Counted from the stretch's first letter, positions 1 to 18,136 are shown. The stretch: DNA of 20,000 nt from Lentisphaeria bacterium (GCA_041690595.1 JAWLHB010000045.1:50184-70183); one strand, 5' to 3'. Made by a program: numbers and translations. Notes: a model not told the origin generated them from the sequence alone.

Positions 1-260
1 GGCAGCAGGTCGGGGCTTTCCGGCAGGGAGACGCCGTTCGCCCAGACGCCGTGCGCGCGACTATACTGGCCGGTGATCCAGCAGGAGCGAGCCGGCGTGC
101 AGACGGGCGCCTGGGCAATGGCATTGGTGTAACGCAGCCCCTGATGGGCGAGACGGTCAAGGTTCGGGGTCGGAACAGCGGTGAGTCCGGCGCAGCCAAG
201 TGCCGTCGCCCGATGCTGGTCGGTGGTGATGAAGAGAATGTGTGGAGCTCTATCGTTCAT
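1..260 (-). CDS. Sulfatase (Cys-type, formylglycine-dependent), N-terminal part; continues beyond the window
   Basis: Not in the ORF track. Manual translation from ATG at 260: MNDRAPHILFITTDQHRATALGCAGLTAVPTPNLDRLAHQGLRYTNAIAQAPVCTPARSCWITGQYSRAHGVWANG. It contains the metal-binding xTDQ motif, TPNLDRLA and the CxPxR signature (CTPAR) followed by TG. One base separates its ATG from the upstream stop codon. No signal peptide is evident. Confidence 0.95.
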   Translation of the reverse strand, partial: MNDRAPHILFITTDQHRATALGCAGLTAVPTPNLDRLAHQGLRYTNAIAQAPVCTPARSCWITGQYSRAHGVWANGVSLPESPDLL

Positions 261-1335: not shown

Positions 1336-4300
1336 TTAACCTATGATTCGGGTTTCATTCGCGCTTGTCCGTTTGACTCTGGCGCCGTTCTCGGCCATGG
1401 AGATCTCATCTCGGCCTTTACCGTTTTGCCACTCCAGCACGATCGAGGTGCGGTGGTGGACGGCTGGCGGTTGTGATCCGTTCGGCAGAGCCACCAGTAT
1501 GCCCAGCACGCCCCCCCGACCGGTTTTGTTTATGCGTACCGCCGAGAGCCGTTGGGCCAACCCATCGCAGGACCCACTTTGTGCCGCGGTTTCGCCGACG
1601 ATAAACTCTTCCCTGCGGAAGCGGTGATTCATGAAGCCGTTTCGCATGGCAGGGTTGCCATGGAAGCTGCCGGCGGCGCCCTGTGTACTGACGTAACTGA
1701 AAGTATCCCTGTCGATGTCCGATGCGCCGTCGATCCATAGCCAGAGATCCAGACCGTAGTCACCGACCATGCGCCATCCGTCGCCATCCCGGACGGCTTT
1801 GTCCGCCAGCGCCCAGACCGACCAACTCCAAGGCTCTTCGGTGTCGCCGACCGTGTCGCGCAGCAGGATGTACTCGGGAATCTCCGGGTCCCGCCCGGCG
1901 ACATGGAGGAAATCGCGACGCCAGCGAATGGGCTTCGCCAGGTGTTCGGTTTCCGCAATTACCGGCTGGCGGTCCGGGCGGGCGCGGGGCTGCAGGATCT
2001 TGATCGTCGTCTCCATGCCGATGTAATCGACCTCGTTGCCGAGTCTGACGACATGAGGATCGGCCATCGGCCAATCGTCGCTTTGGCGAATGCAGATGCG
2101 GTTGTGGCATTCCGCGGCGGCCACGCGTGGGGCATAACCGCTGGCGATGTCCGGGCAGAGGGGGACGCCGTTGGGAAACCAGGCGAACGATCCGTTGTCG
2201 GTGTGATAGTGCCCCCAGCAGAAGCTGCCGAACTTGGCCGCGAGGTAGCTTTCGCGCGGCGTGTTGAAGCTGCGACGGAGGATCGCGCCGAAGCCGGGAT
2301 AATGGCGGCTTTCCCCAGCGATCGGAAGGGGCTGGACCTCCGGTTGCGCCAGCAACAGCGGTTCGCGGAAGCCAAACTTCGCCCAGTCGAACTCGCCGAA
2401 CTGCTCGACGTAGGCCCATTGCAGATTGCTTGCCAGCTCAGGACAGCTTTCCCGCAGGTAGCGGATGCCCCACAGGAAAATGTCCGAGCGCAGTCCGAGC
2501 GAGATGTCACCGAGCCCGACCATGGCGCGACGGTTGTTGAAGCGGGGATCGGGCGGGGTCAGAAGATCGATGGCGAAGCGCGAGACGCTGGAGAGCGCCG
2601 CACTGGTGGTCAGGTCGCCGTGCCCGCCGTGGCGCAGGTTGACGGCCATGCGCCAGAGGAGGGTGAGTCCGAAGCACATATAGCTGGGATTCTCCGCCCA
2701 GGCGCCGTTCGGACCGACATTGCCGCGCTTTTCGTTTTCAGCGTCGGCCCAATGCTTCACGGGCGGGGGCAGAGGATCCTCGACGCGGAGGCAATGCTCC
2801 AACTCGGCCAGGGCCTCCCGCCCCCACTCTCTCGCTTCCGGAAGATCGCGCAGGACGCAGGAAGCCGCGGAGATGGCGAGGCTGTTGGCCATGATGAAGT
2901 TGTGAGTGCCGCGAAAATAGCCATCGCCCGTGCGCGGCCAGCGGTCGCGGTCGGCGAGGCAGCAGGCGAGGAAGACCGTCCGCCGGTAGAGACGCTGGCG
3001 CAAAGCAGGCGGCAGCTCGGCGCAGCTCATGACCCAGTCGAACCAGTCAAAAAGCTGCGTGCATTTCTGCGGGAACTCGAGCACGCTGAGCAGCCAACTG
3101 TCCCAGCCGTCGCCGCATAGCGCCGCCTGGATCAAGGCATCGTACTGGTCTGCCAGCATAAGTGCGAGGGCCGTGGCTTCCGGTAGCTTACCGGTGGCCA
3201 GGAACTGCTCCGGAGCAGTCTGATAGGCGGCGCCCTCGGGATTGTCGGCTCGCCATGTCTCGAGCGCGTTGTGCAACGCGGGGGTTTCCCGAATGCATCG
3301 GCGTATGTCCGGCCAGCGGTCGCGATCGAGGAAAATGCGTGGGTAGCTTTCAGCACGTTCGGGGGGCGTATCCAGCGGCCAGCGTCTGATCTTGTCCAAC
3401 GGGAGGTTATGGTGGTTGCGCAGGTATTGAGGGCGGGCGGTCGAGTGCGGGCTTTGCGGAAAGGCGTCAGTCGCCGTCCCGGCCCACAGGCCCCAGTGTC
3501 GCTCACCGGTTCGGATGGGGAGATGCAGACGAAGACGCCCGCTGTCGTCACGACAAAGCACCGGCTCGTTCTCATACGCGTTCCGCCACGCCGACGAGGT
3601 CAGCGCGAAGATGCCCAGATAGTGCTGCTTCCCCATTTCATGGATGCCAAACCAGGAGCCCTCCTGACCGGTCCAGCTGCTGAACGGGAAGAGCCAGGCT
3701 ACGTCGCGACCGGGCGCGACGTGGGCTGGGAAGGTGAAATGGTTGTCTGCCCCGCCCGGTTGCCCCGGCATGCTCTTGGGCATGTTGGCCGCGTGCAGAA
3801 CCTCAGGCGGATAGTTGCGCTGCTGATTGAGCCGCATATGTATGGAAGCCTTGTCGCCCGGCGCCATCAGCTCCCACGACCAGGCGGGGGCGGACCAGTA
3901 CTGCTCCACCACCCGATGGTGGGGCCAGCTCTCGGTGACGTAATCTGGGCTGACCAGCGTGGACCTCTCGCGCAGCAGGATTGTCTCGGCACCGAGCCAG
4001 GTAGAGACGATACACTCGCAGGTCGCACCGCCGACAAATGTGTAGGTCACACTGGCGCGAAGTTCCAGCGGCCCCGTGGCCAGTAACTCGGTCTGGATAC
4101 CCGTCACCTTGAGATCGCCGATCAGGCGGGAGTCACCCCCTAGCCTGGCACCCCGGCCGACAAACTCCGCGATCGGGCCCGGCACCTCTGTGGCGGCGCG
4201 CCCATCGGGATATGCTACGGAGTTCGGCAGTCGGACGCTGAGATTATCCGTACGGAGTACCAATCCGTCAGCGGTTTGCTCAGCCACGAGCAGCCCATAT

Positions 4301-4614
4301 CCACAGGAGACGGTCAGGTTGTCGGGCAGCTTGGCAACCAGCTCCAGTTCCAGCGTTTCGTTTGGCTGCAGCTCGACCAGAGCAATGGCATCCGCCTCGT
4401 GAATGCTCCCGTCGGGATGCCTCGAAACGATTTCCAGCTGGGCGGGCACCGCGACGGGGTTCATCGCCGCGTGCAGGTTGTCCAGTTGGTGAATCCACCA
4501 GGCGCGTGGGGTGGGAAAGTCGCCCTGAGTGAAGATGAATCGTTCCCGTACAAGCTGCCGGGGCCAATATTGCCCAACCGGCTCGGTGATTTTCAGTGTG
4601 TATGTTGCTGCCAT
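1336..4614 (-). CDS. Large heparinase II/III-like protein (candidate polysaccharide/oligosaccharide lyase)
   Basis: 1092 aa. Helical central region with GTHNF and GAWAENPSY, followed by GFGAILR...YLAAKFG..WGHYHTDNGSFAWFPNGVPLCPD...HN, which matches the H-x-H-x-D-x-x-S-F pattern of heparinase II/III C-terminal domains. No signal peptide seen. Confidence 0.7.
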   Translation of the reverse strand: MAATYTLKITEPVGQYWPRQLVRERFIFTQGDFPTPRAWWIHQLDNLHAAMNPVAVPAQLEIVSRHPDGSIHEADAIALVELQPNETLELELVAKLPDNLTVSCGYGLLVAEQTADGLVLRTDNLSVRLPNSVAYPDGRAATEVPGPIAEFVGRGARLGGDSRLIGDLKVTGIQTELLATGPLELRASVTYTFVGGATCECIVSTWLGAETILLRERSTLVSPDYVTESWPHHRVVEQYWSAPAWSWELMAPGDKASIHMRLNQQRNYPPEVLHAANMPKSMPGQPGGADNHFTFPAHVAPGRDVAWLFPFSSWTGQEGSWFGIHEMGKQHYLGIFALTSSAWRNAYENEPVLCRDDSGRLRLHLPIRTGERHWGLWAGTATDAFPQSPHSTARPQYLRNHHNLPLDKIRRWPLDTPPERAESYPRIFLDRDRWPDIRRCIRETPALHNALETWRADNPEGAAYQTAPEQFLATGKLPEATALALMLADQYDALIQAALCGDGWDSWLLSVLEFPQKCTQLFDWFDWVMSCAELPPALRQRLYRRTVFLACCLADRDRWPRTGDGYFRGTHNFIMANSLAISAASCVLRDLPEAREWGREALAELEHCLRVEDPLPPPVKHWADAENEKRGNVGPNGAWAENPSYMCFGLTLLWRMAVNLRHGGHGDLTTSAALSSVSRFAIDLLTPPDPRFNNRRAMVGLGDISLGLRSDIFLWGIRYLRESCPELASNLQWAYVEQFGEFDWAKFGFREPLLLAQPEVQPLPIAGESRHYPGFGAILRRSFNTPRESYLAAKFGSFCWGHYHTDNGSFAWFPNGVPLCPDIASGYAPRVAAAECHNRICIRQSDDWPMADPHVVRLGNEVDYIGMETTIKILQPRARPDRQPVIAETEHLAKPIRWRRDFLHVAGRDPEIPEYILLRDTVGDTEEPWSWSVWALADKAVRDGDGWRMVGDYGLDLWLWIDGASDIDRDTFSYVSTQGAAGSFHGNPAMRNGFMNHRFRREEFIVGETAAQSGSCDGLAQRLSAVRINKTGRGGVLGILVALPNGSQPPAVHHRTSIVLEWQNGKGRDEISMAENGARVKRTSANETRIIG

Positions 4615-4622
4615 GATTCCAA

Positions 4623-6764
4623 TTATCCGAGGTTAACGGTCGTGTGAACTGCGCTGGAGGCCAGGACGTCGGGTTGGCCCCCCCCGACGCTGATCTGGAA
4701 GTCTCCAGGTTCAATGAATGGTTTGCCCGCATCGTCGTAACAGGCGAACTGTATCGGCTTCAGTTCGAACGTCACCGTTCGTGTTTCACCCGCCTTCACA
4801 TGAATGCGCCGGAAACCTTCCAGATGATGCCGGGGGACGGGGACTGACGCCTCGATATCCTTGATGTAAAGCTGGACGACTTCGTCGCCGTCGCGGTCAC
4901 CCGTATTGGTGACGTCTATCGAGACTTCACATCGGCCGTCGGCGGCTTCCTCAACCGGGCCTGACACCCGAGCCTCGAAACCGGATACCTGCAGGTTGCT
5001 GTACTCGAACGTCGTATAGCTCAGCCCGAATCCGAAGCGATACTGGGGCTCCTCTTCCATGAATCGATAGGTGCGGCCCTTCATGTTGTAATCGTCGAAT
5101 GGCGGCAACTGATCCATGGATTTGACGAAGGTGCATGGCAGGCGGCCAGCGGGATTGTAGTCGCCGAAAATCACCTCGGCGATGGCGTTGCCGCCCTGCT
5201 CGCCGGGGTACCAGCCGAGCACGATGGCATCGGCATACGGCTCAACCTCGGATAGATCGACCGGGCTGCCGGTCAGCAGGACGAGGATAAGCGGCCTCTG
5301 CTTGGCACGGAGATATTTGAGCAAGTCAAGCTGTTTGCCCGGGAGGCCGATCTGAGTGCGGTCACCACCACCATCGGAGGCTGCGACGCCCTCTTCGCCT
5401 TCCAACTCGGTCGTATTTCCCAGCACCGCCACGATCGCTTCGCTGCTGCTCGTGATCTGCTCGTCGAGTTCGGCTATGTGCAAGGGATCATCCCGCCACA
5501 GATCGCAGCCCTTGTTGTAGTTGACCTGCGTACCGACGGAGAGGCGGGAGAGAATGCCCTCGAACGGCGTCACCGGGCGCGGAGAAAAGCCGTTGTAGTT
5601 GGCATACAGCGCCACATCGTTCTGCGCATTCGGTCCAGCCACGCTGATTTCCCGCACAGCCTTCGACAGCGGCAGCACACCGTCATTCTTAAGCAACACG
5701 ATCGACTCGCGGGCCATCCGCAAGGCCAGGTCAAGGTGCTCATGACAGCGGACCTTGCTGACGGGAATCGAGGCGTATGGCACCTTCTCTTCCGGGTCGA
5801 ACATGCCCAGGCGCAGGCGCGCCTCGAAAAGGCGCTTCACGGAGACGTCGAGTTCATCCTCGGTGATCAAGCCCTGCTCGACCGCCTCGATCAGCGCGCC
5901 GTAGGTCGACCCGCAGTTCAGATCACAACCGCTTTTCACCGCCATGGCAGCCGACTCCGCGGGTGTGTCGGTGAGCTTGTGGCAGAGATGGATGTCCCTG
6001 ATGGCGTTGCAGTCGGATACGAAATGGCCTTTGAAGCCCCAGTCGTCACGCAGGATCTTCTGGATCAGCGTTTTGGAGCCGCAGCAGGGTTCGCCAAGCA
6101 CCCGGTTGTAGGCGCCCATTACGGACCAGGCGCCGGCTTCCTGCACACACGCCCTGAAGTGCGGCAGGTAGGTTTCGTGGAGATCTCGCTGCGTCACCAC
6201 GGCGTTGAACGCGTGGCGGACGGGTTCCGGGCCGCTGTGCACGGCGTAGTGCTTGGGCGTTGCCACCACTTTGAGATACGTCGGATCGTCCCCCTGCAGT
6301 CCCTTGCAGAATGCCACCCCCAGGCGAGCGGTCAGGTACGGGTCCTCCCCGTAGGTCTCCTGGCCCCGCCCCCAGCGCGGATCGCGGAAGAGGTTGATGT
6401 TCGGCGACCAGTAGGTCAAACCGAAATAGATGCCCCGGTTGCCCTGCCTGACCGCCTGGTGATGCTTGGCCCTGGCTTCGTCAGAAATCGCGTTGGCGAC
6501 GTCGTGCATCAGCGGTTCGTCAAAGGCCGCCGCCATACCGATAGCTTGCGGGAACACGGTGGCCTGTCCGGCCCTGGCGACGCCGTGAAGGCATTCGTTC
6601 CACCAGGTGTATGCCGGCACGCCTAGCCGAGAAATCGCGGGTGCCGCATGCATCATCTGCGCGACTTTTTCGCGCAGGCTCATCGCCTGGACCAACGCAT
6701 TCACGCGCCGCTCGACGGTGAAGTCAGGATTGTACCACGGATGCTCCGTTTTCATCTCAGGCAT
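4623..6764 (-). CDS. Glycoside hydrolase family 3 (beta-xylosidase/beta-glucosidase) with C-terminal Fn3-like domain
   Basis: Motifs WWNECLHG, FPQAIG, WSPNINLFRDPRWGRGQETYGEDP, KHYAVH, nucleophile region FVSDC, LEGEE, FGFGLSYTTF, GDEVVQLY. AAGGA RBS upstream. No signal peptide. Confidence 0.96.
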   Translation of the reverse strand: MPEMKTEHPWYNPDFTVERRVNALVQAMSLREKVAQMMHAAPAISRLGVPAYTWWNECLHGVARAGQATVFPQAIGMAAAFDEPLMHDVANAISDEARAKHHQAVRQGNRGIYFGLTYWSPNINLFRDPRWGRGQETYGEDPYLTARLGVAFCKGLQGDDPTYLKVVATPKHYAVHSGPEPVRHAFNAVVTQRDLHETYLPHFRACVQEAGAWSVMGAYNRVLGEPCCGSKTLIQKILRDDWGFKGHFVSDCNAIRDIHLCHKLTDTPAESAAMAVKSGCDLNCGSTYGALIEAVEQGLITEDELDVSVKRLFEARLRLGMFDPEEKVPYASIPVSKVRCHEHLDLALRMARESIVLLKNDGVLPLSKAVREISVAGPNAQNDVALYANYNGFSPRPVTPFEGILSRLSVGTQVNYNKGCDLWRDDPLHIAELDEQITSSSEAIVAVLGNTTELEGEEGVAASDGGGDRTQIGLPGKQLDLLKYLRAKQRPLILVLLTGSPVDLSEVEPYADAIVLGWYPGEQGGNAIAEVIFGDYNPAGRLPCTFVKSMDQLPPFDDYNMKGRTYRFMEEEPQYRFGFGLSYTTFEYSNLQVSGFEARVSGPVEEAADGRCEVSIDVTNTGDRDGDEVVQLYIKDIEASVPVPRHHLEGFRRIHVKAGETRTVTFELKPIQFACYDDAGKPFIEPGDFQISVGGGQPDVLASSAVHTTVNLG

Positions 6765-6780
6765 TTCATCTTCCTTATCA

Positions 6781-9700
6781 TCATTTCTCGTTTACCTTGA
6801 AATCAACCGAGCTTCTGGGCGCGACCGTGACCGTGTGTGCCCCATCTTCGAGGATCGCGAACGCCGGCGCCGGTGCGAGGATCGCGGTGATCTCCCGGTC
6901 GGTCGGATTGTGAGCTTCCACCATCCATACGCCCGTGGGTTCGCCGCGATCGTCGGTCTCTCGGACGGTTGTGATGTGCAGTTCCGAATAGTCGGTCGTC
7001 AGAAGATTGCCGACGACCAGTTCCGTACCTTTCAGCGTCGCGGGTACCTGGCAGAACGCCTTCTTATCATACACGCCGACGGGTCGGATCAGCCCCTGGT
7101 CTTTGCGGTACAGGAAGGCGGAAGCGTTGGGATTCACCCCATCGACGATGATCGGCTGCATGTTGGTGTCGAAGGCAGCTTCTTTCAGCAGAATGGCCGC
7201 CGCACCATTCTCAGCCTTCACGTGCAGTTCGCACAGAGGCAGACCGTCCAGTTGCCCGGTCTTCAATGCGAACCACTCGGGTTTCAATACCTGTTCCACG
7301 TCGACGGCCCGGTCGATGCGCTGGAATCGCCAGGTGAAGGTCTCGCCCGCGCGATTGCGGTCGCCAACATGCACCCCGGACTCGACCACCGCGTGATCGT
7401 CCTCCCACGCGACGCGAAAGGCCAGATCGTCGCCCTGCCACTGGATACTCTCGCCACGTTCGGTCGATTGCATGGTCAATACGCTTCCGGACGGGATCGG
7501 TATCATGGTCGATTCAGTATCTTTATTCACCGTGCCACGAATCACGCCGCCACCTGGCTCGATCAAGGCATACTCGACCGCTTCGGGCGCCTGGGATTCG
7601 ATCACGGTCTTGGCGAAGAAGCCGTTTGCATCGAGTTCCAGCGGTTTCTTGAGCGTCAGTTCGTGCTCGAAAACGTGGAGCTCGGCAGGCTGCGGCCCTT
7701 CCTTCATGTCGGCGGTCGCCTCGCCAAAGCCGTCCCAGTAGACCTTCTGCGTGTGGTGGCTCTTGTGGGACACGCCCTGACCGTGACGGTTGTAGTATTC
7801 GTAGCCGCGCTGCTCGAGGGTGTAGTCGTCGCGCTCGTGGTGCGGCGCCCAGTTGTGCCAGCCGTGCTGGTCGGTCAGTTCATCCCAATGGTATACCCAA
7901 TCGGTCCTGTACCGTTCTATGAGCACATCCGGACTGACCAGATCCACGAAGAAGCGGCGGACTTCGTCGCGCGGGGTGCGATTCGCCCGCAACGCCTTGT
8001 CGTCAATCCTGCCGCGTTTCAACCGGATATGCCGATAGGTCGGGCCGCCGTGAATAGGGCTGTAGATGCTCAGCGGTACATTGACGCGATCGCCACAGTA
8101 GTTGTAAAGCCTCTGCTGCTGCTCCATCCAGATCTCATTGCTTACCGCTCGATGGCCGTTCTTGTCGGTGACGACGGCGGCAAGGTGACGGTTTTGGTCT
8201 TGCAACAGGTCGAAGTCGACCGTGAAATCGGTCGCGCCCTTCGGATCGAAACGGCGGATGAGGGTTTCCCCGTCATAGATGGTGATGTCTGCAAGTCCCG
8301 CCTCGCTTTCGGCGTCCAGTCGCACCTTCAACCGGTACCAACTGTCCATGAACCAGTCCCTGGTCTCGATGCCTTGATGGCGCTCGATCCAGTAGCGTGG
8401 GAATTCAATCCCCATCCAGCGATAGCCACCGCGGAACAGCAATCGCAGCTTCGGCCCCTGGGTGGCCACCGGTCCGACCCATGAGCGATAAACCTGGCGA
8501 TCGGGAACCTCAGGATCACTGACGACAAAACGCTTGAATACACGTTCGAGCGTGGCTTGTTCGGGCATCCGCGGATCGTTGTCCGCGGAGGTTACCAGGA
8601 ACGGGCGTCCGTTCTTCGCGGCGCCATCCAGTTCTTCCGGGCTGAACATCAGATCAAGCGCGTAGGGCCTGGGATTCACGTGGAGCGAGTTGGCGTGCAG
8701 GAGCTTGTCGAGGGCATCGTCAAGCGGTTTACCCCTCTCGTAGCTCCAGACGGTAAACATGTTGTAAAGCTTGTAGTCCCAGAAGGGCGCCTGGTTGGAT
8801 TCATGGTCGAAGTAGCCGGTGCACTTCTGTTCGAGCCAGAGCTGAATCTGACCGCTCTTATGGTCGGTAGCGCCGTGGCCTTTCTGCGGCGACCAGCCGC
8901 GGTCCACGTTGATTTGTTTGCCGTCGTCGGTGAGATAGGCACCTGAGATCCAAGGCCGTTTGTTGCCCCAGGGCAAAAAGCCGCGGTTGCCGCTGGCGTT
9001 CTGATATTCGAGCCCGGCGCAGGCGATGAAATTTTCGTCCGACGCTGCCAGGCAATCGGCTTGCAGGCTCTCCCACTTTTCCTGGTTCATGTGGACCAGA
9101 TCCTCGGCGAAGATCAGGAAATCGAAGCCGTTTCGCTTGGCGGCTTCCACCCATTCGGCGACGGTGCCGGTGCCGGTCGAGTAGGTGGTGTGGGCGCCGC
9201 AGACGCCGCGGTAGTAGCCGGTGGGCTTGCCCGGGAAGTCCATCTGATCCCAGGCGACGGTGGGGGTGTCGCGCGCGATTGGCGGCCGCTTGGCGATGTC
9301 GGGGCCGTAAAGACCCGCGTCGAGGGACGGTTGCGCCAGCCATGCGTAGGTGTTTTCCAGCAGCTTCCAGAAATCGCTGGGTACGCCCTTTTCCCCCTTT
9401 TTCATGACCACTTCGCCCAGCGGAGGATAGTAGGGGGTCCAGACGATCCACTGGGGCGCGACGCCGAGCACGGCCATCCGACCGGCATCGACCTGGCGAA
9501 CCGACAGCAGTGAGTACGGGCCGTCCGGCCGCTTGTCGCGCCAAAGCCGCTGCGGCACCTGCTTGGCTATCTGCAACTCCGCGGTCGGGGCGGTCTCGAC
9601 CAGCGATTGCCACTGGTGGCTGGTGTTCACCGGCGTTGCCGCCGCTTGAGCATGCCCGCCCCAGCCGACTGGATACCAGATAGCCTCGACGCCGCGGGTC

Positions 9701-10257
9701 ACCGGGTGATCAGCCGCGATCTTACGGGCCAGTGCCACTTTTGAGCCATAGCGCTGCAGTGCCGGCGGGCTCATGGGCGTTTCAGTGCCGGCATCCCGGA
9801 TGGCTTCGGCGTAGAAGTCGATGCCGAATGTCTTCAGGAAATCGGGGATGTCACCCAGGCCTTCCTCGTGGTAACCGCCCGAGGTGTTCAGGATGAAGAG
9901 CACGCCGCCACCGGCGCGCATGTACTCTTCGATGTAGCGCTGGCGCTCCTGATTGAGGCGCTGATCGGCATGGATGAAGCCGTAGCTGGAGATGACCACA
10001 GCATGGTAGCGACGCAGGACGTGGGGCGTGATCTCGCTCCACTGGCCGGCGAAGACGTCGAAACCGTGCGCTTCCAGTTCGTCGAGATAGGTGGTCTCCA
10101 TGTAGACGCCCGGTTTGCCGATGAAGAGCAGCGCGGGTCTGCCCTCCGGTTCGGCCGCGGCTGTTTGGCTGCAAGTAGTGATCAGCAGGGCGGCGAGCAT
10201 GATTAACAGGCCGCGTGCGGCACGATTCAAGGGCGGCAGATAGCAGTTTCTGAGCAT
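6781..10257 (-). CDS. Large secreted multidomain protein (~1158 aa): N-terminal alpha/beta (GATase-like) domain plus degenerate PHP-like domain
   Basis: Start moved from 10392 to ATG 10257, which follows an AAGGAG RBS and begins a signal peptide (RAARGLLIMLAALLITTCSQTAAA). YHAVVI...YMRAGGGVLF...HPVTRGV...GRMAVLG resembles class-I GATase-like/DUF4350-type domains. GVCGAHTTYSTG...AAKRNGFDFLIFAED...AGLEY resembles PHP motifs. Confidence 0.75.
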   Translation of the reverse strand: MLRNCYLPPLNRAARGLLIMLAALLITTCSQTAAAEPEGRPALLFIGKPGVYMETTYLDELEAHGFDVFAGQWSEITPHVLRRYHAVVISSYGFIHADQRLNQERQRYIEEYMRAGGGVLFILNTSGGYHEEGLGDIPDFLKTFGIDFYAEAIRDAGTETPMSPPALQRYGSKVALARKIAADHPVTRGVEAIWYPVGWGGHAQAAATPVNTSHQWQSLVETAPTAELQIAKQVPQRLWRDKRPDGPYSLLSVRQVDAGRMAVLGVAPQWIVWTPYYPPLGEVVMKKGEKGVPSDFWKLLENTYAWLAQPSLDAGLYGPDIAKRPPIARDTPTVAWDQMDFPGKPTGYYRGVCGAHTTYSTGTGTVAEWVEAAKRNGFDFLIFAEDLVHMNQEKWESLQADCLAASDENFIACAGLEYQNASGNRGFLPWGNKRPWISGAYLTDDGKQINVDRGWSPQKGHGATDHKSGQIQLWLEQKCTGYFDHESNQAPFWDYKLYNMFTVWSYERGKPLDDALDKLLHANSLHVNPRPYALDLMFSPEELDGAAKNGRPFLVTSADNDPRMPEQATLERVFKRFVVSDPEVPDRQVYRSWVGPVATQGPKLRLLFRGGYRWMGIEFPRYWIERHQGIETRDWFMDSWYRLKVRLDAESEAGLADITIYDGETLIRRFDPKGATDFTVDFDLLQDQNRHLAAVVTDKNGHRAVSNEIWMEQQQRLYNYCGDRVNVPLSIYSPIHGGPTYRHIRLKRGRIDDKALRANRTPRDEVRRFFVDLVSPDVLIERYRTDWVYHWDELTDQHGWHNWAPHHERDDYTLEQRGYEYYNRHGQGVSHKSHHTQKVYWDGFGEATADMKEGPQPAELHVFEHELTLKKPLELDANGFFAKTVIESQAPEAVEYALIEPGGGVIRGTVNKDTESTMIPIPSGSVLTMQSTERGESIQWQGDDLAFRVAWEDDHAVVESGVHVGDRNRAGETFTWRFQRIDRAVDVEQVLKPEWFALKTGQLDGLPLCELHVKAENGAAAILLKEAAFDTNMQPIIVDGVNPNASAFLYRKDQGLIRPVGVYDKKAFCQVPATLKGTELVVGNLLTTDYSELHITTVRETDDRGEPTGVWMVEAHNPTDREITAILAPAPAFAILEDGAHTVTVAPRSSVDFKVNEK

Positions 10258-10355
10258 GATATGGGACTCCTTTGGATGATGACTTTGGATCAGCGCACGA
10301 CGCGATGTTCGCCGGGCTGCAGCGCCCATCGGGCCCACATAGCTGCGGTTCCCGG

Positions 10356-10469
10356 TCAAGTGCTCGGCAAACTGTCGCACGAGGTTCGACACCGCTCGAT
10401 CAAAGTGAACGGCTGGCGCCTGGTGCAGGATGTGGGGTGCTGGTTTTCTCTCGTCTCTCTGTGACTCAT
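10356..10469 (-). pseudogene. Truncated prepilin-type (FTLIE) gene relic, 37 codons
   Basis: AAGGAG RBS (10484-10479), then ATG 10469: MSHRETRENQHPTSCTRRQPFTLIERCRTSCDSLPST*. The leader resembles the intact pilin at 13714 (MHRET...RRSCFTLIE), but similarity stops right after FTLIE and there is no hydrophobic helix. Confidence 0.8.
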
Positions 10470-10506
10470 GTTCAGGGTCTCCTTTCTTGGCTAACTGAAG
10501 GGGCGA

Positions 10507-11565
10507 TCATTCTACGCTCCCCTCGGTCACGCGGAGGGAACCGTGCGAGAGCATGATTGGGTGCACCAGCTCGCGCACCGGTGGCTGGTCGGTGGTGACA
10601 ACGCGCATGGCTCGCTCTGTGGTGGCCAACCGCTGAAAACTCATCGTATCGACATGCATTCGCGGCTCGCCGGGGGCCTCTATCGCGATCAGGCCGATGT
10701 CTTCCGGCACGCACAACTCGCGCTGCGCGAACGTCTGCTGCAGCACCTTTGCGCTCCTGGCGTTGTTGAGAACCAGCGCACTGTTGGCTGGCACTCTGGC
10801 GAGGATGCCCTGGAGGTCGCCCGAGTGCCCGGGCGGGAGCAGTACATAATCGTCTACAAGGGGCACGCCATCCTCGCGCCTGGCTTGCCGGAGACCGGCA
10901 TGGTGCAGCCCGCAGGCAGGCGCAGAAGTGTCGGCATAGCCGAAGTAAAAGATGTGCCGATAGCCGGCGCGCGCGACCGCCACCGCGGCCAGGCGGGCGG
11001 CGCGCTGATAGTCGGGCATCAGGTATTCCTGGTCGGGAAGTTCCGGCCGATAGTGCTCGATATGGATGACCCTCACCCCGGCCGCCGCCACCTCGTCCAG
11101 CAACGCGTCGTTGCGCGGCTCCACGGGGGAGCAGAAGGCCAGCAGCGCCTGGTGACGCTGATCGCGTACCTGCTGCAGAAAGAGACGCTCGGCATCCGGG
11201 TTCCAGGCTGTCTGCAGCTGAGAGTAGACGCTGAGCAAATGGCCGTTGGCCAGTGCCGCATGCTGCAGGGGCACCAGATCCTCCTCCCCGAACATGTACA
11301 TGTAGGATATCATCCTGGGGCTTGAGTGGACCCCGGGTGCCGCCTTGACGAAGACGCCGGCACCACGTCGCGCCCACACGCGCCGTTCATCCTTCAACCG
11401 CGAAATGACCTTGTTGACGGTCGTCACGCTGGCGCTGTAGCTTGCGGCCAATTCGAGTTGTTTCGGCAGGCGTTCGCCTTCCTCAAGCACCCCCTCATCG
11501 ATCTGACGACGGAGATCGAGGTAGATGTCGTGGCAGCGGTAACCTGTATGCGTCTTAGGGGGCAT
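10507..11565 (-). CDS. GntR-family winged-HTH regulator with C-terminal LacI/periplasmic-binding-protein-like sensor (AraR-type architecture)
   Basis: IYLDLRRQIDEGVLEEGERLPKQLELAASYSASVTTVNKVISRL...RRGAGVFV is a GntR HTH. The C-terminus has GYRHI, VPEDIGLI and LSHGS, typical of LacI-type sensors. ATG 11565 follows GAGG; TTG 11571 is an alternative start. Confidence 0.92.
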   Translation of the reverse strand: MPPKTHTGYRCHDIYLDLRRQIDEGVLEEGERLPKQLELAASYSASVTTVNKVISRLKDERRVWARRGAGVFVKAAPGVHSSPRMISYMYMFGEEDLVPLQHAALANGHLLSVYSQLQTAWNPDAERLFLQQVRDQRHQALLAFCSPVEPRNDALLDEVAAAGVRVIHIEHYRPELPDQEYLMPDYQRAARLAAVAVARAGYRHIFYFGYADTSAPACGLHHAGLRQARREDGVPLVDDYVLLPPGHSGDLQGILARVPANSALVLNNARSAKVLQQTFAQRELCVPEDIGLIAIEAPGEPRMHVDTMSFQRLATTERAMRVVTTDQPPVRELVHPIMLSHGSLRVTEGSVE

Positions 11566-11599
11566 GCTCAATCCTCAACTTTCGGACCTGCTCACTCTG

Positions 11600-11634
11600 A
11601 TACTTACGTTTACGTTTAGCAGGTGCCTTGTCAA
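11600..11634 (-). promoter_or_regulatory. Putative sigma70 promoter of the GntR gene with overlapping tandem repeat (candidate operator)
   Basis: The minus strand reads TTGACA (11634-11629) aggcacctgc TAAACG TAAACG TAAGTAT. The -35 is perfect; the -10 is weak and lies within the TAAACG repeats. An AT-rich tract lies just upstream (11641-11668). Confidence 0.5.
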
Positions 11635-11713
11635 ACAGGCAACTAAAATAAGTATGGAATAATTAGATTGCGCGGCCGCGACGGCGCCTCTCCGATGTTC
11701 CGGGCTTGGTGCA

Positions 11714-11772
11714 CCCGCACCAGCTGCCTGGGTCAGTATTGCCCAACCGGCTCGGTGATTTTTGTGGTGTAT
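11714..11772 (-). pseudogene. Relic of the 5' end of a diverged homolog of the 1336..4614 gene
   Basis: 50/59 nt identical, ungapped, to 4545..4603. Translates YTTKITEPVGQY*PRQLVR versus YTLKITEPVGQYWPRQLVR. Confidence 0.85.
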
Positions 11773-11834
11773 CGCTCAGCAGGCAGGTGTGCTTGTTGCC
11801 TTTGCTCCAGCCTTACAGCTCGCCATGCCGATGC

Positions 11835-12275
11835 TTATTCGCTCCTTGCGCCCTTTTCCAGCAGTCTCAAGGTGTTGACGTCCGGCTGTCCTTGGTAGTA
11901 CTTTTCGAGAGCCTCAGCAAAGAGGCTCTCCGCGGACTCGCAAAGCGAGAACAACGTAACGGAGGAGTGGAACTTCCACGTGTCGGGCTCTCCAAAGATG
12001 TCGTACGCGGTAGCACCCTGAACTTGCAGCACGAGGGACGTGCATGCGTTCAGGCGTGCTCCCAGCAGGGGATGGAGCAGGTAACGCTGTGCTTGGTCAA
12101 GGGAATCGATGGCGTATCTTTCGGACATCCAGCTGTAGCCGAGTCCGCGCAGCTGAGGAAAGATGAACCACATCCAGTGCGAGGTTTTCGCTCCAGCGGC
12201 CAGTTCGCGGAGCACCTGGCCATAAACGGGTGCCTGCGCATCAACGAAGTGGGAAAATTCATCAGGCTGTGTCAT
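11835..12275 (-). CDS. DUF1810 family protein
   Basis: FVDAQAPVYGQVLRELAAGAKTSHWMWFIFPQLRGLG.S..YAI...YLLHPLLGARL...IFG.PD..KFHSSVTLF matches the recognisable DUF1810 pattern. ATG 12275 is preferred over TTG 12293. Confidence 0.9.
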   Translation of the reverse strand: MTQPDEFSHFVDAQAPVYGQVLRELAAGAKTSHWMWFIFPQLRGLGYSWMSERYAIDSLDQAQRYLLHPLLGARLNACTSLVLQVQGATAYDIFGEPDTWKFHSSVTLFSLCESAESLFAEALEKYYQGQPDVNTLRLLEKGARSE

Positions 12276-12493
12276 CTGTCTTCGACTCTGCAAAGGGTTA
12301 GACGTTCGGTCTGCCTAAGGTAGGTGCGTGCGGAGAGGATTGCCAGAGTCGCAGCAGCGCTGGCAGGCCGTCAGAGGCAACGGGCGGAACTGAACCGATG
12401 ATGCGGGGGGCGCGGGAACGCAAGCCAGTCAGGCGTGTGGCTTTTCAGGATTGGGGAAGCGGACGATTGGAAGGTGCTTTTTTCGAGTTTGAC

Positions 12494-12557
12494 TTGACTA
12501 CTACCGGACAGAAGTTAGATTCGCGGGATTGAAACGGTTCAATGTAAGGTTCAATTC
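12494..12557 (+). promoter_or_regulatory. Promoter and LacI-type operator upstream of the LacI gene
   Basis: TTGACT (12494-12499)-N16-TAGATT (12516-12521). Near-perfect palindrome ATTGAAACGGTTCAAT (12528-12543) with central CG, and an extra half-site GGTTCAAT at 12549-12556. Confidence 0.7.
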
Positions 12558-12573
12558 ACTCCGGTCAGCAGAG

Positions 12574-13632
12574 ATGAATGTAACAATACGAGACGTGGCC
12601 AGACATGCCGGGCTAAGCTTGGGAACAGCCAGCGGCGTACTCAACGGAAGTGACAAGTTCTCTGAGGCAACCAGGAAGCGGGTCTGGGAAGCGGCACTGA
12701 AGCTGGACTACACGCCGAACCGACAGGCTCAGACGTTGCGGGCAACGGGAAGCGCGCAGGGACGGGCACGAACGGGCGTCATCATGCATGTGTCGCATCT
12801 TGGGAGTGAGTCGCCTTTGGGGGATAGTTTCGAGGCGGAGCGATCGCTGACGATGTCGTGGCTGGCGCAGCAGTTGGGCATGTACCCCATCTCTTACTGG
12901 TACCGTCGGCGCAGCGGCTTTCAGTGTCCGCCCGTGCTGAATGGCTACGTGGATGGAGCCATCGTGGGAACGCCTCACGTGGAGGTCGTGGAGATCCTGC
13001 GTAAGAAGGTGCCCGTGGTGCTTATGGATGTGCCTTTTTCGGCGGATGTGGCGGACGTGCCAATGGTCAATGCGGATTGGCGGCATGGGATCGCGACATT
13101 GATGGGTGACCTGGCCGAACGTGGTCATCGGCGCCTGGGGCTGATCCACTCGACAGCCGAGGGGGATGGTGTGTCCACCGAGGTCCCCAAGGTGCGGATC
13201 ATGAAAGAGACAGCCAAGGCGGCCGGGCTGACGATTTCAGATGGCTGTTGCCTTTCAGACGCGATTGTGCCGGAGACGCACGATGGGATGATGGCGGACT
13301 TGTCGGAGGCGTTTGCCGGGTTAATCCGGGAAGGCAGACTGACCGCGATCATGGCGTCTGGCGAGTTCTACGCCGCCAGCCTGCACGAGAATCTGGTGCG
13401 GCTGGGGATCAGGGTGCCTGAAGATGTGAGCATCGCCATGACCTCCTCGGGGCTGGAGGGAGCGACAAGCACGATAGCGAAGGTGACCGTCGATTGGACC
13501 GCGATGATACAGACCGCGCTGGAGGTACTTTCCGCACAGATGAGCGGGAGGTCATTACCCTGCCGGGAATACCTGGTGCCGTCACGCGTACTCGCTGGGA
13601 CCAGCATTGGCTCTGTGCCGGAAACCAGCTAG
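12574..13632 (+). CDS. LacI-family transcriptional regulator
   Basis: MNVTIRDVARHAGLSLGTASGVLNG...SEATRKRVWEAALKLDYTPNRQAQTL is a LacI HTH plus hinge helix. GHRRLG and GIRVPEDVSI are sensor-domain motifs. Start placed at ATG 12574 because TTG 12529 lies in the operator. Confidence 0.95.
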   Translation: MNVTIRDVARHAGLSLGTASGVLNGSDKFSEATRKRVWEAALKLDYTPNRQAQTLRATGSAQGRARTGVIMHVSHLGSESPLGDSFEAERSLTMSWLAQQLGMYPISYWYRRRSGFQCPPVLNGYVDGAIVGTPHVEVVEILRKKVPVVLMDVPFSADVADVPMVNADWRHGIATLMGDLAERGHRRLGLIHSTAEGDGVSTEVPKVRIMKETAKAAGLTISDGCCLSDAIVPETHDGMMADLSEAFAGLIREGRLTAIMASGEFYAASLHENLVRLGIRVPEDVSIAMTSSGLEGATSTIAKVTVDWTAMIQTALEVLSAQMSGRSLPCREYLVPSRVLAGTSIGSVPETS

Positions 13633-13713
13633 TACCTACCTCTCTCCATGAGAACCAAGAATCGTTAAAGAACCGACGAGCCAAGCTCAACCAGCAACAA
13701 GGAGGATTCAGTC

Positions 13714-14430
13714 ATGCATCGCGAAACCATCACATCGTTGCCTGAACAGTCCCTCTGGGGAGACGCTTTCCCGAGCAGACGGAGCTGCTTTACGCTGATC
13801 GAGCTTCTCGTCGTCATCGCGATTATCTCCATTCTGGCAAGTCTGCTCCTCCCTGCTCTGAGCCAAGCCAGGCAGGTTGCCCAAAGAACGGCCTGCAGCA
13901 ACAATCTCCGCCAGTTGAACATGAGCGCCGCCGGCTACGCCGATGCCAACGACGAGTGGGTCCTTGCAGCCAATGGCCCTGACGCGCAGAAGACGCGTTG
14001 GTGGAACAGACTTTCGGACGAACTCGGGGCTGATGCATTTGCGAGGCTGGGGCGTTGCCCATCGGACAAGAGCCCGCTGGCGGGAGGTTCCTATGCCTAC
14101 AGCCGATCTCTCGGGTGCAGGATGTGGAGCGACGCTTATGGTTTGAACTTCAGACGACTTTCAAGAATCACAAATCCGGTCGGTTGCCTGCGGCTCGCCG
14201 ATGGTTACACGGATCTCATGCCGATCACCGTGCTTGGGGTCAACCACTCCCAGATGACAGCTTGGATGTACCTGAACATCCCGGCGGGGGTTGGCATGAA
14301 CCAACTTGGTTTCCGTCACCCAAACATCATCGGCAACGTCAACATGGCCTTCATGGACGGACATGTCTCTCACCACAATCACGCCGGATCACGAGAGATC
14401 ATCACCAAGCAGAATGGCTGCTTCAACTGA
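13714..14430 (+). CDS. Prepilin-type N-terminal cleavage/methylation protein with C-terminal H-Xn-DG motif (DUF1559-like)
   Basis: [43 protein letters not shown], an internal CPSD, and C-terminal [29 protein letters not shown] upstream. Confidence 0.95.
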
Positions 14431-14512
14431 TCGCTGGAAAACCGGAGTGGATTCGGGTCAGCCGCGGGTGCGCCCGTTTCCCCCAACCAACAAGACCCAG
14501 GAGGAGTTTCTC

Positions 14513-16825
14513 ATGAGACCGAGCTTGCTCGCCTTTATCACGCTATTTCCGGCAATCGCCATGTGGGGGGCTGACCTCACCCTCGTCAGTGAAGGCAAGA
14601 CGGAGTATCTGATCGTGACTGGAACGAATCAGCCTTACGATGGTTTCGCGACGAGTGAGTTTCAGCAGATCATAGAGAAGAGTACCGGGTGCGCTTTGGA
14701 GTCCGTGGCCACGGACTCGCCGGAAGCGGAGAGGAGCGGGAAGCGGATTTTCATCGGCCACAGCGCGCGGGTTCGCGAGCTGCTTGGCGAGGCGCGTGTG
14801 GATGGGCTGAAGAAGAATGAATCCCTTGTCGCCACGATCGGCGACGACCTTGTGATCATCGGCGGGGGAAATCACGGTACGTCGTATGGCGTCTATCTTT
14901 TTCTTGAGAAAGAAGTCGGATACCGGTGCTTCACGCCGTTTCCGAATGGGGAACGCATACCGCAGCACCGAAGTCTCGTGGTGAGTGGAATGGAGTATGG
15001 GGAACGCCCCGCCTTCGATCTGTCACGCAAGGCTTACATGCTTTACCTGTATGACAAGAGCGGGTCGCTGTATCAATACCGAAACCGGGGCGTGGTGCGA
15101 TACACGTGTGTCTCCGGGGATGTGACGTTGGATGGTATTGAGAACTCCGACTTTGCGCTCCTTGACACCGGCCATGGCTTCAACCTGTACATCACAACCG
15201 ACCGGACGAAGAATTACTACGAGTGGGACGAAAGCAAGGACTACTTCCAAACCAATCCGGAATACTTCAGCCTGAATCGGAACAACGAGCGGACGGCAAG
15301 GCTTCAGCTGTGCTTCTCCAATCCTGAGTTGCGGAAGGAGTTGACGAGACGGATCATCGAGCGCGGCAAGCGCAGGGGTGGACGAGGAGTGCTTACCCTC
15401 GGCGCCAACGACTGGCCGGGCCCCTTCTGCTTCTGCGAGGACTGCAAGCAGCTTGAGGAGAAGTATGGCTGCACAGGCGGTCCGTTGTATGATTATATCC
15501 TTGAAGCGTGTCCCGAGGTGGCGAAGGAACTGCCGGATATCAGGATCAGTACCCTGGCGTACCGGAAGGCCCAGAGCGAAGCGCCGCCAAGAGGTATCGA
15601 CAAGATGCCAGATAATTGGATCTGCGACTTCGCTCCCGTCGATGACGATCAGGGACAGACCCTCGACGGCGACCGCAATCTCGACACCTTGAAGAACCTG
15701 AAAGCGTGGAGCCGCCTTACCAACAACATCACGTACTGGTATTATATCTGCATCAACTCGGCGCCCTTCGGGCCTGTGGAAAGACTTTCGCGAGACATGA
15801 AGTTGATGTACGAGAACGGCGTGCGAGGGGTGGGCGTCTGCGGCCTGGGTTCACCTGGGATGTTTCCGATGCAGGAATACATCATGTTTCGTCTGATGGT
15901 CGATCCGTATCAGGACCCGTGGCCGCTGGTTGAGGAGTACAACCAGCATCACTACGGCGACGCCGCACCCGAAATGAGCCGGTACGTGAAGGAACTGGAA
16001 GAGATCTGGCGGGAGCCGAAGCGATATATTCCGCTTTCTTGTCCGGGCAAGGATATTCTGGATTTCACTCCCGAGCGGCTGATTCGCTGGCAGGCGATGT
16101 TCGATGCGCTCGAAAAGAAACTCTCGGAGAAGGGGGACGAACTCAGGAATCTCTCTCTGGCGCGCTGGGATATCGACATGCTGACACTCACCCATTACCC
16201 GAGAGTGATCGAGAGCTTTCCAGATTGCGGCATCACTCCGCAGCAGGTTATCGAGCGCATGCGCGCGGTGGATCTTCCCAACCGTTACCGAGGCCAGAAC
16301 CTGCGAAAACAGGCCGAGACTGCCTACCTGACCTGCTTAGCCTTGTCGAAGCCGTTACCCTCGCCCCTGGACAAGCTTCCAAGCGGGCGCGTGACGCAGC
16401 TTCCGCAATGTGGTGGCCACTTCCCGATTCCGGATCCCGACGCCGCTTGCGGCGAAGCGAAGACCCAGCCGCTGCGCGAGAATCAAATGAAAGAGCAGGG
16501 CAAGAAGATTGGATTCGACATTTATGACGTCGCGACCAAACACACCCTGCAACACGGGGAGATCGATGTCTCAATGTGCATTCCGGGAAAGTACGAGGTC
16601 TATTTCGTGGCGAAAACGACAATCCCACGCGGCGGTCTGATCGCCTTCGACTCGTGGTGGGGCATACAGGATTCCCTCGCTCCGTACTATCCAGAGGGAG
16701 ACGAGTTCCGAGAGTATGAAATATGGGCGTCGCTGAAATTTGTCGGACCTTCATTCGGGACTGAGACCGACGACAACAAAGATAGAATCTTCTGCGACCG
16801 CATGTTCATCGTCGACAAGAAATAG
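14513..16825 (+). CDS. Secreted DUF4838-like protein (putative glycoside hydrolase-like)
   Basis: Start moved to ATG 14513 (AGGAGG RBS; signal peptide MRPSLLAFITLFPAIAMWG). N-terminal GH20/GH67-type accessory domain (LVIIGGGNHGTSYGVYLFLEKEVGYRCF), then PEYFSL, QLCFSNPEL, ND...CFCEDC, ISTLAY and LMVDP, typical of DUF4838 proteins. Confidence 0.8.
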   Translation: MRPSLLAFITLFPAIAMWGADLTLVSEGKTEYLIVTGTNQPYDGFATSEFQQIIEKSTGCALESVATDSPEAERSGKRIFIGHSARVRELLGEARVDGLKKNESLVATIGDDLVIIGGGNHGTSYGVYLFLEKEVGYRCFTPFPNGERIPQHRSLVVSGMEYGERPAFDLSRKAYMLYLYDKSGSLYQYRNRGVVRYTCVSGDVTLDGIENSDFALLDTGHGFNLYITTDRTKNYYEWDESKDYFQTNPEYFSLNRNNERTARLQLCFSNPELRKELTRRIIERGKRRGGRGVLTLGANDWPGPFCFCEDCKQLEEKYGCTGGPLYDYILEACPEVAKELPDIRISTLAYRKAQSEAPPRGIDKMPDNWICDFAPVDDDQGQTLDGDRNLDTLKNLKAWSRLTNNITYWYYICINSAPFGPVERLSRDMKLMYENGVRGVGVCGLGSPGMFPMQEYIMFRLMVDPYQDPWPLVEEYNQHHYGDAAPEMSRYVKELEEIWREPKRYIPLSCPGKDILDFTPERLIRWQAMFDALEKKLSEKGDELRNLSLARWDIDMLTLTHYPRVIESFPDCGITPQQVIERMRAVDLPNRYRGQNLRKQAETAYLTCLALSKPLPSPLDKLPSGRVTQLPQCGGHFPIPDPDAACGEAKTQPLRENQMKEQGKKIGFDIYDVATKHTLQHGEIDVSMCIPGKYEVYFVAKTTIPRGGLIAFDSWWGIQDSLAPYYPEGDEFREYEIWASLKFVGPSFGTETDDNKDRIFCDRMFIVDKK

Positions 16826-17236
16826 AGGGCACCTCTGAGCACAAGGACTGGCCACTTACTACGTGGCCATCCGTTCACTTCCAGCAATTGCCTCTTGGCA
16901 ATTCTCTATCTGACATCCATGCTATTGCCGGGCATTCCACGCCAGGCGAAAGCGCCCGCGGTGCAAATTGCCAGATCGCTCTCAAGCAGATTGGTCTGGC
17001 AGCTTATGCCAATGGGGTGCTGACGTCTTCCCGAAGAATAACGGAGACTCGTAAACATATTCGGACCGAAGGTCGGCGCAGCCAAGGGCGGAAGGTGCCG
17101 TATGCGAGTTGCGGGGGCGCGGGCGTCTTCTCATCAGGGCATCTTTAAAGGGCGGCGAGATGGGCTATAGTGTGCCTTTTACGGCGGCGGAGTTGCCGGT
17201 TAACAGGATCGTGAATTGCGAACAGGGGGAGAGATC

Positions 17237-18085: not shown

Positions 18086-18136
18086 TCCTTTCCTGCCGAT
18101 ACCTCGAACACTCAACTGGGGAAACCTAAAGTCATC

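Follow-up and report, generated by a model that had tools for sequence, protein, structure and literature searches.

What is a pilin-like gene doing between a sugar repressor and the enzymes of a glycan locus? The question is raised by a 20,000-nucleotide stretch of a Lentisphaeria bacterium genome (GCA_041690595.1, 8.1 Mb, 97% complete; here G000), in which two arms each place the start of such a gene directly behind a regulator and ahead of large proteins that appear to be secreted. This whole stretch, G000:C45:50184-70183, is referred to below as the window, and positions are counted from its start. The N_methyl/DUF1559 proteins to which the gene appears to belong form a large family in the Planctomycetes-Verrucomicrobia-Chlamydiae (PVC) bacteria (PMC4807772, PMC5352709), with at least 41 members per Planctomycetales genome, dispersed and often flanked by signal-peptide genes (PMC8567305). 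Published work thus already covers the pilin family, the extent to which it has expanded and the secreted proteins beside it. In our literature search, which did not extend to the majority of subscription papers or to bioRxiv supplements, neither the coupling of these pilins to repressors nor the loss in Lentisphaeria of the glycine at position -1 of the leader was described. N_methyl/DUF1559 proteins rank among the largest PVC families without known function, and the layout described here gives them a testable role; it also bears on the wider question of how Gram-negative bacteria that degrade glycans gain access to them when SusC/SusD is lacking.

The repressor-pilin cassette in the window and beyond

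The rightward arm opens with a LacI-family repressor (12574..13632, plus strand, ATG at 12574; helix-turn-helix (HTH) PF00356 E 1.6e-14, sugar-binding domain PF13377 E 7e-12), continues with a 238-residue pilin-like gene that resembles the N_methyl/DUF1559/H-Xn-DG family (13714..14430, plus strand; PF07963 and TIGR02532 over cut-off) and ends with a 770-residue DUF4838 protein with a signal-peptide-like start (14513..16825, plus strand; PF16126 E 6.5e-40). On the leftward arm, all on the minus strand, a hybrid regulator that joins a GntR-type HTH to a sugar-binding domain of the LacI type (10507..11571; PF00392 E 4e-14, with PF13377 at E 6e-5, a weak match of 23.6 bits below cut-off) is followed by a truncated, 37-residue pilin relic (10356..10469), a 1158-residue protein with a signal-peptide-like start, one of 22 paralogs (6781..10257; NF038032 E 4e-6, under cut-off), and glycan enzymes. 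A preliminary description of this DNA had sketched both arms, and all of the parts that it named are in place, including a pilin start that comes first after the regulator behind a strong ribosome-binding site (RBS; AAGGAGG on the right and, for the relic, AAAGGAG on the left). It had also remarked on the absence of TonB receptors and of ATP-binding cassette or major facilitator transporters, and none of the 12 window proteins scanned belongs to a transporter family, the single related hit being a sub-cut-off ABC_transp_aux match inside the 1158-residue protein. Throughout, 'secreted' denotes an N-terminal sequence judged by eye together with a crude hydrophobicity rule, with no signal-peptide predictor.

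The relic reading frame comprises the RBS, an ATG, a 20-residue leader and FTLIE at 10409, followed by 12 unrelated codons and a stop. It is unlikely to be a chance match, because FTL[IV]E without a pilin helix is rare (10 occurrences in 16.2 million six-frame residues) and because RBS, ATG and the right position are all present. No C-terminal remnant was detectable, with 823 of 1000 shuffles scoring equally high, and everything after E5 is lost. Two further broken pilin genes lie directly behind GntR hybrids (G000:C12:32316 and C64:15329-15769, both on the minus strand), one of them truncated after 12 codons and the other frameshifted. A metagenome scan with the GntR protein for an intact left-arm pilin returned two loci, both 38% identical and both lacking a pilin match, and four sediment runs yielded scattered short pieces only, one of which spans the relic junction with 22 letters on its short side, too few to count; no RNA data set was listed as containing the sequence.

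Across the genome, for which 5534 genes were called in this analysis, 203 frames carry a pilin N-terminus; 174 of these (E < 1e-20, mature length 150-320 residues) make up the core family considered here and the other 29 were set aside. A same-strand sugar-type repressor stands directly upstream of 63 of the 174 paralogs. Random genes gave a mean of 3.9 and a maximum of 12 in 5000 draws, and even a local null, drawn from genes within five places of a repressor, gave a mean of 12.6 and a maximum of 24, so the enrichment directly behind LacI/GntR genes that the window had suggested is borne out. Seen from the other side, 63 of 135 repressors are directly followed by a pilin paralog and 106 have one within five genes. 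The same positional test returned 3/75 for DUF4838 genes and 0/77 for sulfatases. The gap between repressor and pilin is zero or negative in 21 of the 63 pairs, and GntR-HTH/sugar-domain hybrids number 91 in this genome, from which our regulator profiles were built, such that distant regulators outside the class may be missed. The cassette layout is real and genome-wide.

What follows the pilin is typically a large gene, with a median of 824 residues compared with 357, and with 84/122 reaching at least 600 residues compared with 1109/5196. It is a DUF4838 gene in 17 cases, and a Pfam scan of 60 of the 102 next-downstream genes that are neither DUF4838 nor sulfatase placed 19 in carbohydrate-active enzyme (CAZyme), carbohydrate-binding module or lectin families and 13 in others, with no transporter among them; the remaining 28 match no family. 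The placement of the pilins ahead of large proteins is thus supported, and through the 28 without a family the pilin gene serves as a marker of operons with uncharacterised glycan enzymes. Amongst the 122 next-downstream proteins, a lipobox pattern occurs in only six, a PEP-CTERM signal in none and an outer-membrane C-terminal signal in two. Multi-pass membrane proteins are scarce near the paralogs (57/1280 vs 311/4051). Same-strand runs that contain a pilin lack any gene of at least 600 residues in 41 of 156 cases, and 257 large genes share runs with the 174 pilins. The pilin is tied more tightly to the regulator than to any one enzyme family.

The pilin family is present in all 21 relatives considered, with 3 to at least 137 matches each; the counts at the top are lower bounds, both here (at least 137) and in a separate draw of 61 genomes (at least 47). 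The cassette recurs in two genomes of another order, G020 (25/68 pilins vs 9/429 other genes) and G016 (8/16 vs 4/127), and among 77 named loci it was found at 8 of 20 pilins in Victivallales and at 1 of 7 in other Lentisphaeria. The single pilin of G017 follows a GntR-HTH gene that the sugar-domain profile had missed. Of 11 same-class loci with enough sequence upstream of the DUF4838 homolog, 8 have a pilin there, compared with 0 of 3 in another class. A head 62% identical to that of the window (P0002) and a DUF4838 protein at 60% identity (P0133) each lie on a contig of 16,193 nucleotides, probably the same one.

The pilin, its leader and the machines available to it

The window protein scores 28.5 bits against PF07963 (cut-off 21.2) and matches neither TIGR04294 nor PF07596. 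The latter is found on many of its 120 listed homologs and its cut-off is passed by one paralog, that of TIGR04294 by 14 genome matches. A 25-residue leader ends in Cys, the mature FTLIE begins at 13789, and C36, C90, H177 and D190-G191-H192 are conserved, with a motif spacing of H-X12-DG. Within the core family the N-terminal helix is near-invariant and E5 is present in 174/174 paralogs, with H177 in 173, D190 in 157 and G191 in 158; C36, C90, W71, Y117, H177 and D190-G191 are kept across the family, and most of the remaining head sequence cannot be aligned from one paralog to another, similarity being largely undetectable (median pair score 0 bits). For the closest paralogs, the ratio of non-synonymous to synonymous substitution in the head is 0.13-0.40 in 12 of 14 pairs, the other two being saturated, which points to purifying selection on the heads of close paralogs. 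A structure model of the window protein (predicted local distance difference test score, pLDDT, 82.6) consists of a predicted helix at residues 3-53 and a globular head. Its 18 top structural matches are all type IV pilins or pseudopilins, which upholds the pilin-like identity; the best of them, Thermus PilA4, has a Z of 6.4 at a root-mean-square deviation of 3.6 over 120 aligned residues. Foldseek returned nothing at E <= 0.001. No enzyme fold appears among the listed matches of the head, which does not exclude one.

The leader is unusual. The residue before the mature Phe is Gly in 14 and Ala in 16 of the 174 paralogs, and either residue occurs in only 1 of 27 Lentisphaeria-labelled loci compared with 64 of 65 loci outside. 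The pseudopilins of type II secretion system (T2SS) operons in the same genomes also lack Gly at this position, with Arg in 3 of 5 on G000 C53 and Asn, Lys or Ala at the GspG-position genes of G020. Since pseudopilins in complete T2SS operons of both genomes share this class-wide loss, we infer that it reflects a relaxed PilD prepilin peptidase rather than uncleaved proteins. With this loss standard prepilin rules fail in Lentisphaeria, and an unusual PilD is predicted. G000 has a single PilD that carries both Pfam domains; as a separate observation, it is 418 residues long and has a long hydrophilic insertion before the second catalytic motif.

PilD is, however, the only component that is single. 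A single core pilB/pilC/pilD locus, as once envisaged for this genome, is rejected, since several secretion or pilus machines exist: ATPases of the PilB/GspE/PilT type match 19 times over cut-off, secretins 6 times and platform domains 15 times. In G020 no fewer than four T2SS operons are complete, and ATPase matches of PilT length occur in G000, G020, G016 and G112. No assembly gene was found within the window cassettes. Elsewhere in G000 a family member with a variant C-terminal motif (G000:C7:132660-133481) heads a secretin-PilM-x-x-PilB operon, and this operon ties the pilin family genetically to a filament machine. Members of this C7 type precede an orthologous secretin in 10 of 30 loci, their heads are homologous across genomes (25-47% identity) and G000 has one copy, making the subfamily a candidate housekeeping subunit.

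Two other arrangements may be recorded alongside these machines. On G000:C46 (L019:1982-5488) genes for a pseudopilin and a platform protein adjoin those of two exported proteins of 580 residues, in which a pilin-like helix and a DG motif form the C-terminal end, so that the family's motifs appear in a reversed architecture. In G020 (L229:7611-10673, L230:6812-9865) divergent secretin-like genes occur as tandem pairs with no adjacent ATPase or pilin gene, and similar pairs are seen in G016 and G112; these could possibly be stand-alone outer-membrane pores.

The loci had been described as lacking SusC/D, and this holds: SusD (PF07980) has no match in the genome, and its four TonB receptors lie 11.5-26 kb from the nearest pilin paralog. 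Sugar-type binding proteins number 12, three of them within 5 kb of a paralog. TonB receptors are lacking in G020, G016 and G112, which show 9-12 secretin matches, and a TonB-dependent receptor was found in none of 19 well-assembled genomes of families f7 and f10, with up to 9-12 secretin matches where these were checked. Pilin and TonB counts per Mb are inversely related over the 21 relatives (rho -0.85), and in the 61-genome draw 15 of the 16 genomes rich in pilins carry one TonB receptor or none, with 17 of the 61 poor in both. The absence of SusC/SusD is real and does not show replacement, and the pilin-TonB pattern is largely one of lineage.

What the cassette pilin may do

We consider it highly probable that the cassette pilin is a co-induced filament subunit of glycan operons. 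As to what such a subunit is for, our best reading, which we hold tentatively, is that it is a sugar-induced, variable subunit that captures substrate. Each cassette would be an operon switched on by sugar, and the type IV pilin that leads its structural genes would join a membrane helix that hardly changes between paralogs to a head that differs greatly. Sugar freed from the polymer would inactivate the repressor of that locus, and the pilin would be produced in quantity together with the enzymes of the operon. It would be processed by the single PilD, which must then accept residues other than Gly at -1, and the common helix would allow any paralog into a shared filament machine. The displayed head might bind the polymer or its carrier particle and keep it at the cell surface, close to the secretin and to the enzymes induced alongside the pilin; that retraction then imports the polymer through the secretin is an additional and weaker step. 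Glycan binding, import and a SusD-like role are putative. The original proposal that each glycan locus carries its own sugar-induced pilin is supported by the repressor coupling, the pilin fold, the lack of SusD and the behaviour of a similar pilin elsewhere, and the single core locus has been given up.

That similar pilin, described in 2026, is pgaptmp_000050 of Verruconatronum alginivorum (Verrucomicrobiota), a 'PulG-like pseudopilin' of 251 residues with 67 homologs in its genome, encoded in an alginate cluster (PMC13274419). In a single replicate its share of total protein on alginate was 0.513%, some five times the level of the two alginate lyases (0.111 and 0.097), and on sucrose and on mannose it was 0 (Table S3 of that paper); on alginate it is the most abundant protein of its cluster. 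Of 50 pilin rows of 215-276 residues in the same data, 36 were undetected, 12 were at or below 0.033% and one was constitutive at 0.87-1.78%. Capture is favoured because the pilin is tied to the sensor and not to one enzyme family, because runs without a large gene are frequent and because the pilin was super-stoichiometric in this published proteome. The layout of the paralogs behind sugar repressors suggests that the Lentisphaeria bacterium swaps its surface-fibre subunit according to the polysaccharide being eaten.

A considerable body of evidence weighs against this reading. Some of it concerns the cassette itself: 111 of the 174 paralogs have no such repressor directly upstream, the left-arm operon appears intact without its pilin, and the copies on C12 and C64 are broken as well. 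In seven same-order genomes 0 of 22 pilins lie in a cassette, most of these genomes having few such repressors (G009 has 100 and was sampled at two pilins), and G019 gave 0/8, a result made weak by poor gene calls. In the 77 named loci the cassette was found at none of the 65 pilins outside Lentisphaeria (0/28 Planctomycetota, 0/27 Verrucomicrobia/Kiritimatiellia, 0/10 others), and in family f2 the paralogs number 19-102 and the repressors of this kind 0-1. Other points concern the head. It matches pilins alone, at middling Z with none at 8, and no lectin fold is among the listed matches. Head and regulator similarity are weakly correlated (Mantel r 0.095, p 0.007), and strict co-evolution of heads with enzymes or regulators, considered as a separate candidate, was rejected, the correlations being weak only (r 0.037-0.095) and triads not significant. 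The G112 cassette keeps LacI at 42% and DUF4838 at 63% identity with a head that has no BLAST match to that of the window, which would be odd if the head reads the same glycan and weakens both capture and the export reading discussed below. As regards the machinery, the C7-type secretin was not found with our query in families f7 (0/54) and f10 (0/27), in which cassettes are frequent. By definition a class 3 signal has Gly or Ala as its last residue (PMC9934059) and the window leader ends otherwise, so that its cleavage is assumed. A phylum-wide trade-off between pilins and TonB receptors was also rejected, being absent outside the class (rho -0.04 over 41 genomes; -0.11 for the means of 26 families). 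Finally, the Verruconatronum data come from one replicate of an organism that has a TonB system, and the likeness to its pilin is one of length and annotation only.

It is also possible, if less likely, that the pilin joins a T2SS pseudopilus or a pilus as an adaptor that recruits, exports or holds the adjacent large enzyme. The next gene is indeed mostly large and its product seldom a lipoprotein, T2SS are multiple, and the pilin commonly precedes the DUF4838 homolog in same-class loci; the similar head and enzyme of P0002 and P0133 probably sit on one contig. Acinetobacter is reported to have dedicated T2SS chaperones located next to the cargo they serve (PMC4713064), and in Verruconatronum a T2SS pseudopilin also rises on alginate (0.222 vs 0.006), with export being what its authors propose (PMC13274419). 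Paralogs with homologous downstream genes do more often have similar heads (5/20 pairs vs 22/8482), but the heads are unrelated in the other 15 of those pairs, and the G112 ortholog retains the enzyme beside an unrelated head. Large genes outnumber the pilins with which they share runs, many runs have none, and a pilin at five times the level of the lyases resembles the subunit of a polymer more closely than a partner in a 1:1 ratio.

Two further possibilities would deny the pilin a role in capture at the surface. It is unlikely that the proteins are uncleaved inner-membrane anchors whose heads lie in the periplasm as scaffolds or oligosaccharide-binding relays. The leaders are compatible with such anchors, Gly or Ala being present in just 30/174 paralogs and in almost no Lentisphaeria locus, as is the scarcity of multi-pass membrane proteins nearby; yet the T2SS-operon pseudopilins lack Gly as well, a sign that PilD is relaxed. 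In addition, the helix, E5 included, hardly varies along its whole length, and one family member sits in a machine operon. Surface variation that evades phages or grazers, or hitch-hiking with duplicated regulator blocks, in either case with no substrate specificity, seems quite improbable. Heads mostly without detectable similarity, a head swapped within an orthologous cassette and the existence of relics would fit this, but the heads are under purifying selection, the pilin keeps a fixed place behind a sugar sensor in distant orders, and induction was by a single substrate in the published proteome. One sugar per variant would, in addition, be a poor design for evasion.

Returning to substrate capture, because every head is accompanied in its cassette by a sensor and a set of enzymes, each paralog comes with a predicted inducer and a candidate ligand. 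In its boldest form this would amount to an undescribed polysaccharide-feeding system in Lentisphaeria and some other PVC bacteria, which we regard as rather doubtful at present: 100-200 repressor-gated pilin heads would be swapped into retractile filaments by way of a relaxed prepilin peptidase, each polymer being bound and drawn to or through secretin pores, replacing SusC/SusD where TonB-dependent receptors are absent, as in the 19 f7 and f10 genomes.

Other features of the window and comparison with known systems

Upstream of the right arm a sigma-70-like promoter, TTGACT-N16-TAGATT (12494..12521, plus strand), was read by eye as a consensus match alone, and between it and the start codon lies a near-perfect 16-bp palindrome of the LacI-operator type (12528..12543), through which we infer that LacI may regulate its own operon. 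A general operator motif was rejected, a palindromic core of the 16-bp type preceding 5/37 LacI genes (112/2468 controls); no upstream 8-mer is enriched for LacI and only weak AT-rich words are for GntR. The DUF4838 protein models well (pLDDT 91.6) and Foldseek relates it to glycoside hydrolase (GH) family GH115 at E 5e-17, in keeping with a predicted GH115/GH67/GH84-like fold. PF16126 serves as the catalytic domain in GH163 and GH185 (PMC10570127), and the protein here is a putative glycosidase. Within this subfamily C267, C306-x-C308-x-x-C311 and H221 are invariant, possibly forming a metal or iron-sulfur site in a glycosidase-fold protein. Some 400 nt beyond the right arm, at 17216-19594, a D-mannonate oxidoreductase-type short-chain dehydrogenase/reductase (NF006132 over cut-off) and a 6-phosphogluconate dehydrogenase are consistent with uronate catabolism, and at 19698-19933 a 64-nt repeat occurs twice within dispersed repeat sequence that is probably the end of a mobile element; BLAST finds about 60 pieces of it across the genome, often where contigs end.

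On the left arm, 5 of the 22 paralogs of the 1158-residue protein come after a pilin gene. Its Atlas matches are to unnamed clusters (0.98) and, as a lead only, to PHP/DUF3604 clusters (0.78-0.79), making these exported-type proteins of about 1100-1200 residues, which recur in such operons and have a weak PHP-like metallohydrolase signal, a candidate new family of glycan-modifying enzymes. There follow on the minus strand a 713-residue GH3 glycosidase (4623..6764; PF00933, PF01915, PF14310), a 1092-residue protein (1336..4614), a 355-residue protein with a signal-peptide-like start and no match in family scans (262..1329) and the 5' part of a 474-residue sulfatase (3..260; PF00884) that extends past the window edge, beyond which gene calls place a second gene of the size of the 1158-residue family and an IclR regulator. 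The 1092-residue protein has no Pfam match; its Atlas matches (0.98, among them a cluster in which 15% of members carry Hepar_II_III_N, and clusters of heparinase II/III at 0.88-0.89) are a lead towards a candidate polysaccharide lyase of that type. A PDB sequence search gave no match for the DUF4838, 1158-residue or 1092-residue protein. Between the arms lies a DUF1810 gene (11835..12293, minus strand), and a 59-nt direct repeat (85%), with copies in the first codons of the 1092-residue gene (4545-4603) and upstream of the GntR gene (11714-11772), is perhaps a rearrangement scar beside it.

The closest relatives of the pilin are the PVC proteins that combine N_methyl with SBP_bac_10 (DUF1559, PF07596; H-X9-DG, TIGR04294), with which it shares the N-terminal helix, the C-terminal H...DG motif and large expansion. 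The heads here are shorter, the H-Xn-DG spacing varies, Gly at -1 is lost, and the coupling to LacI/GntR is seen in Lentisphaeria and in none of the Planctomycetota-labelled loci. The Verruconatronum protein is of similar size, lies in a polysaccharide cluster ahead of signal-peptide genes and is induced by one substrate, homology being judged from length and annotation; it differs in being divergent from a symporter and not directly behind a repressor, and its authors read it as T2SS export and do not treat the family as a system.

Glycan-binding pilins have precedent, since the minor pilin PilC of Streptococcus sanguinis binds glycans (PMC9934059) and a type IV-like pilus encoded by the PilM-containing MUL2 locus of Akkermansiaceae has been proposed to serve attachment and uptake of complex glycans (PMC13174399). 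PilC is one of five pilins and carries a grafted lectin module, whereas the heads here show no such module. The Akkermansiaceae pilus belongs to the same phylum and is a single conserved four-gene locus with an archaeal-like pilin, in contrast to the library of more than 100 separately regulated subunits in our genome; a layout of pilin, PilM and assembly genes is absent from the window cassettes, and only the C7 member adjoins a secretin, PilM and PilB. Bacteroidota polysaccharide utilisation loci (PULs) with SusC/SusD resemble the present loci in grouping a sensor-regulator with CAZymes and sulfatases, a feature that is present here, in their many parallel copies and in the one variable, non-enzymatic protein of each. 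The loci described here have no SusD or TonB receptor, few lipoproteins and cytoplasmic LacI/GntR repressors, and their variable protein is a pilin, which in position, and probably in regulation, would act like the capture layer of a PUL without being a PUL member.

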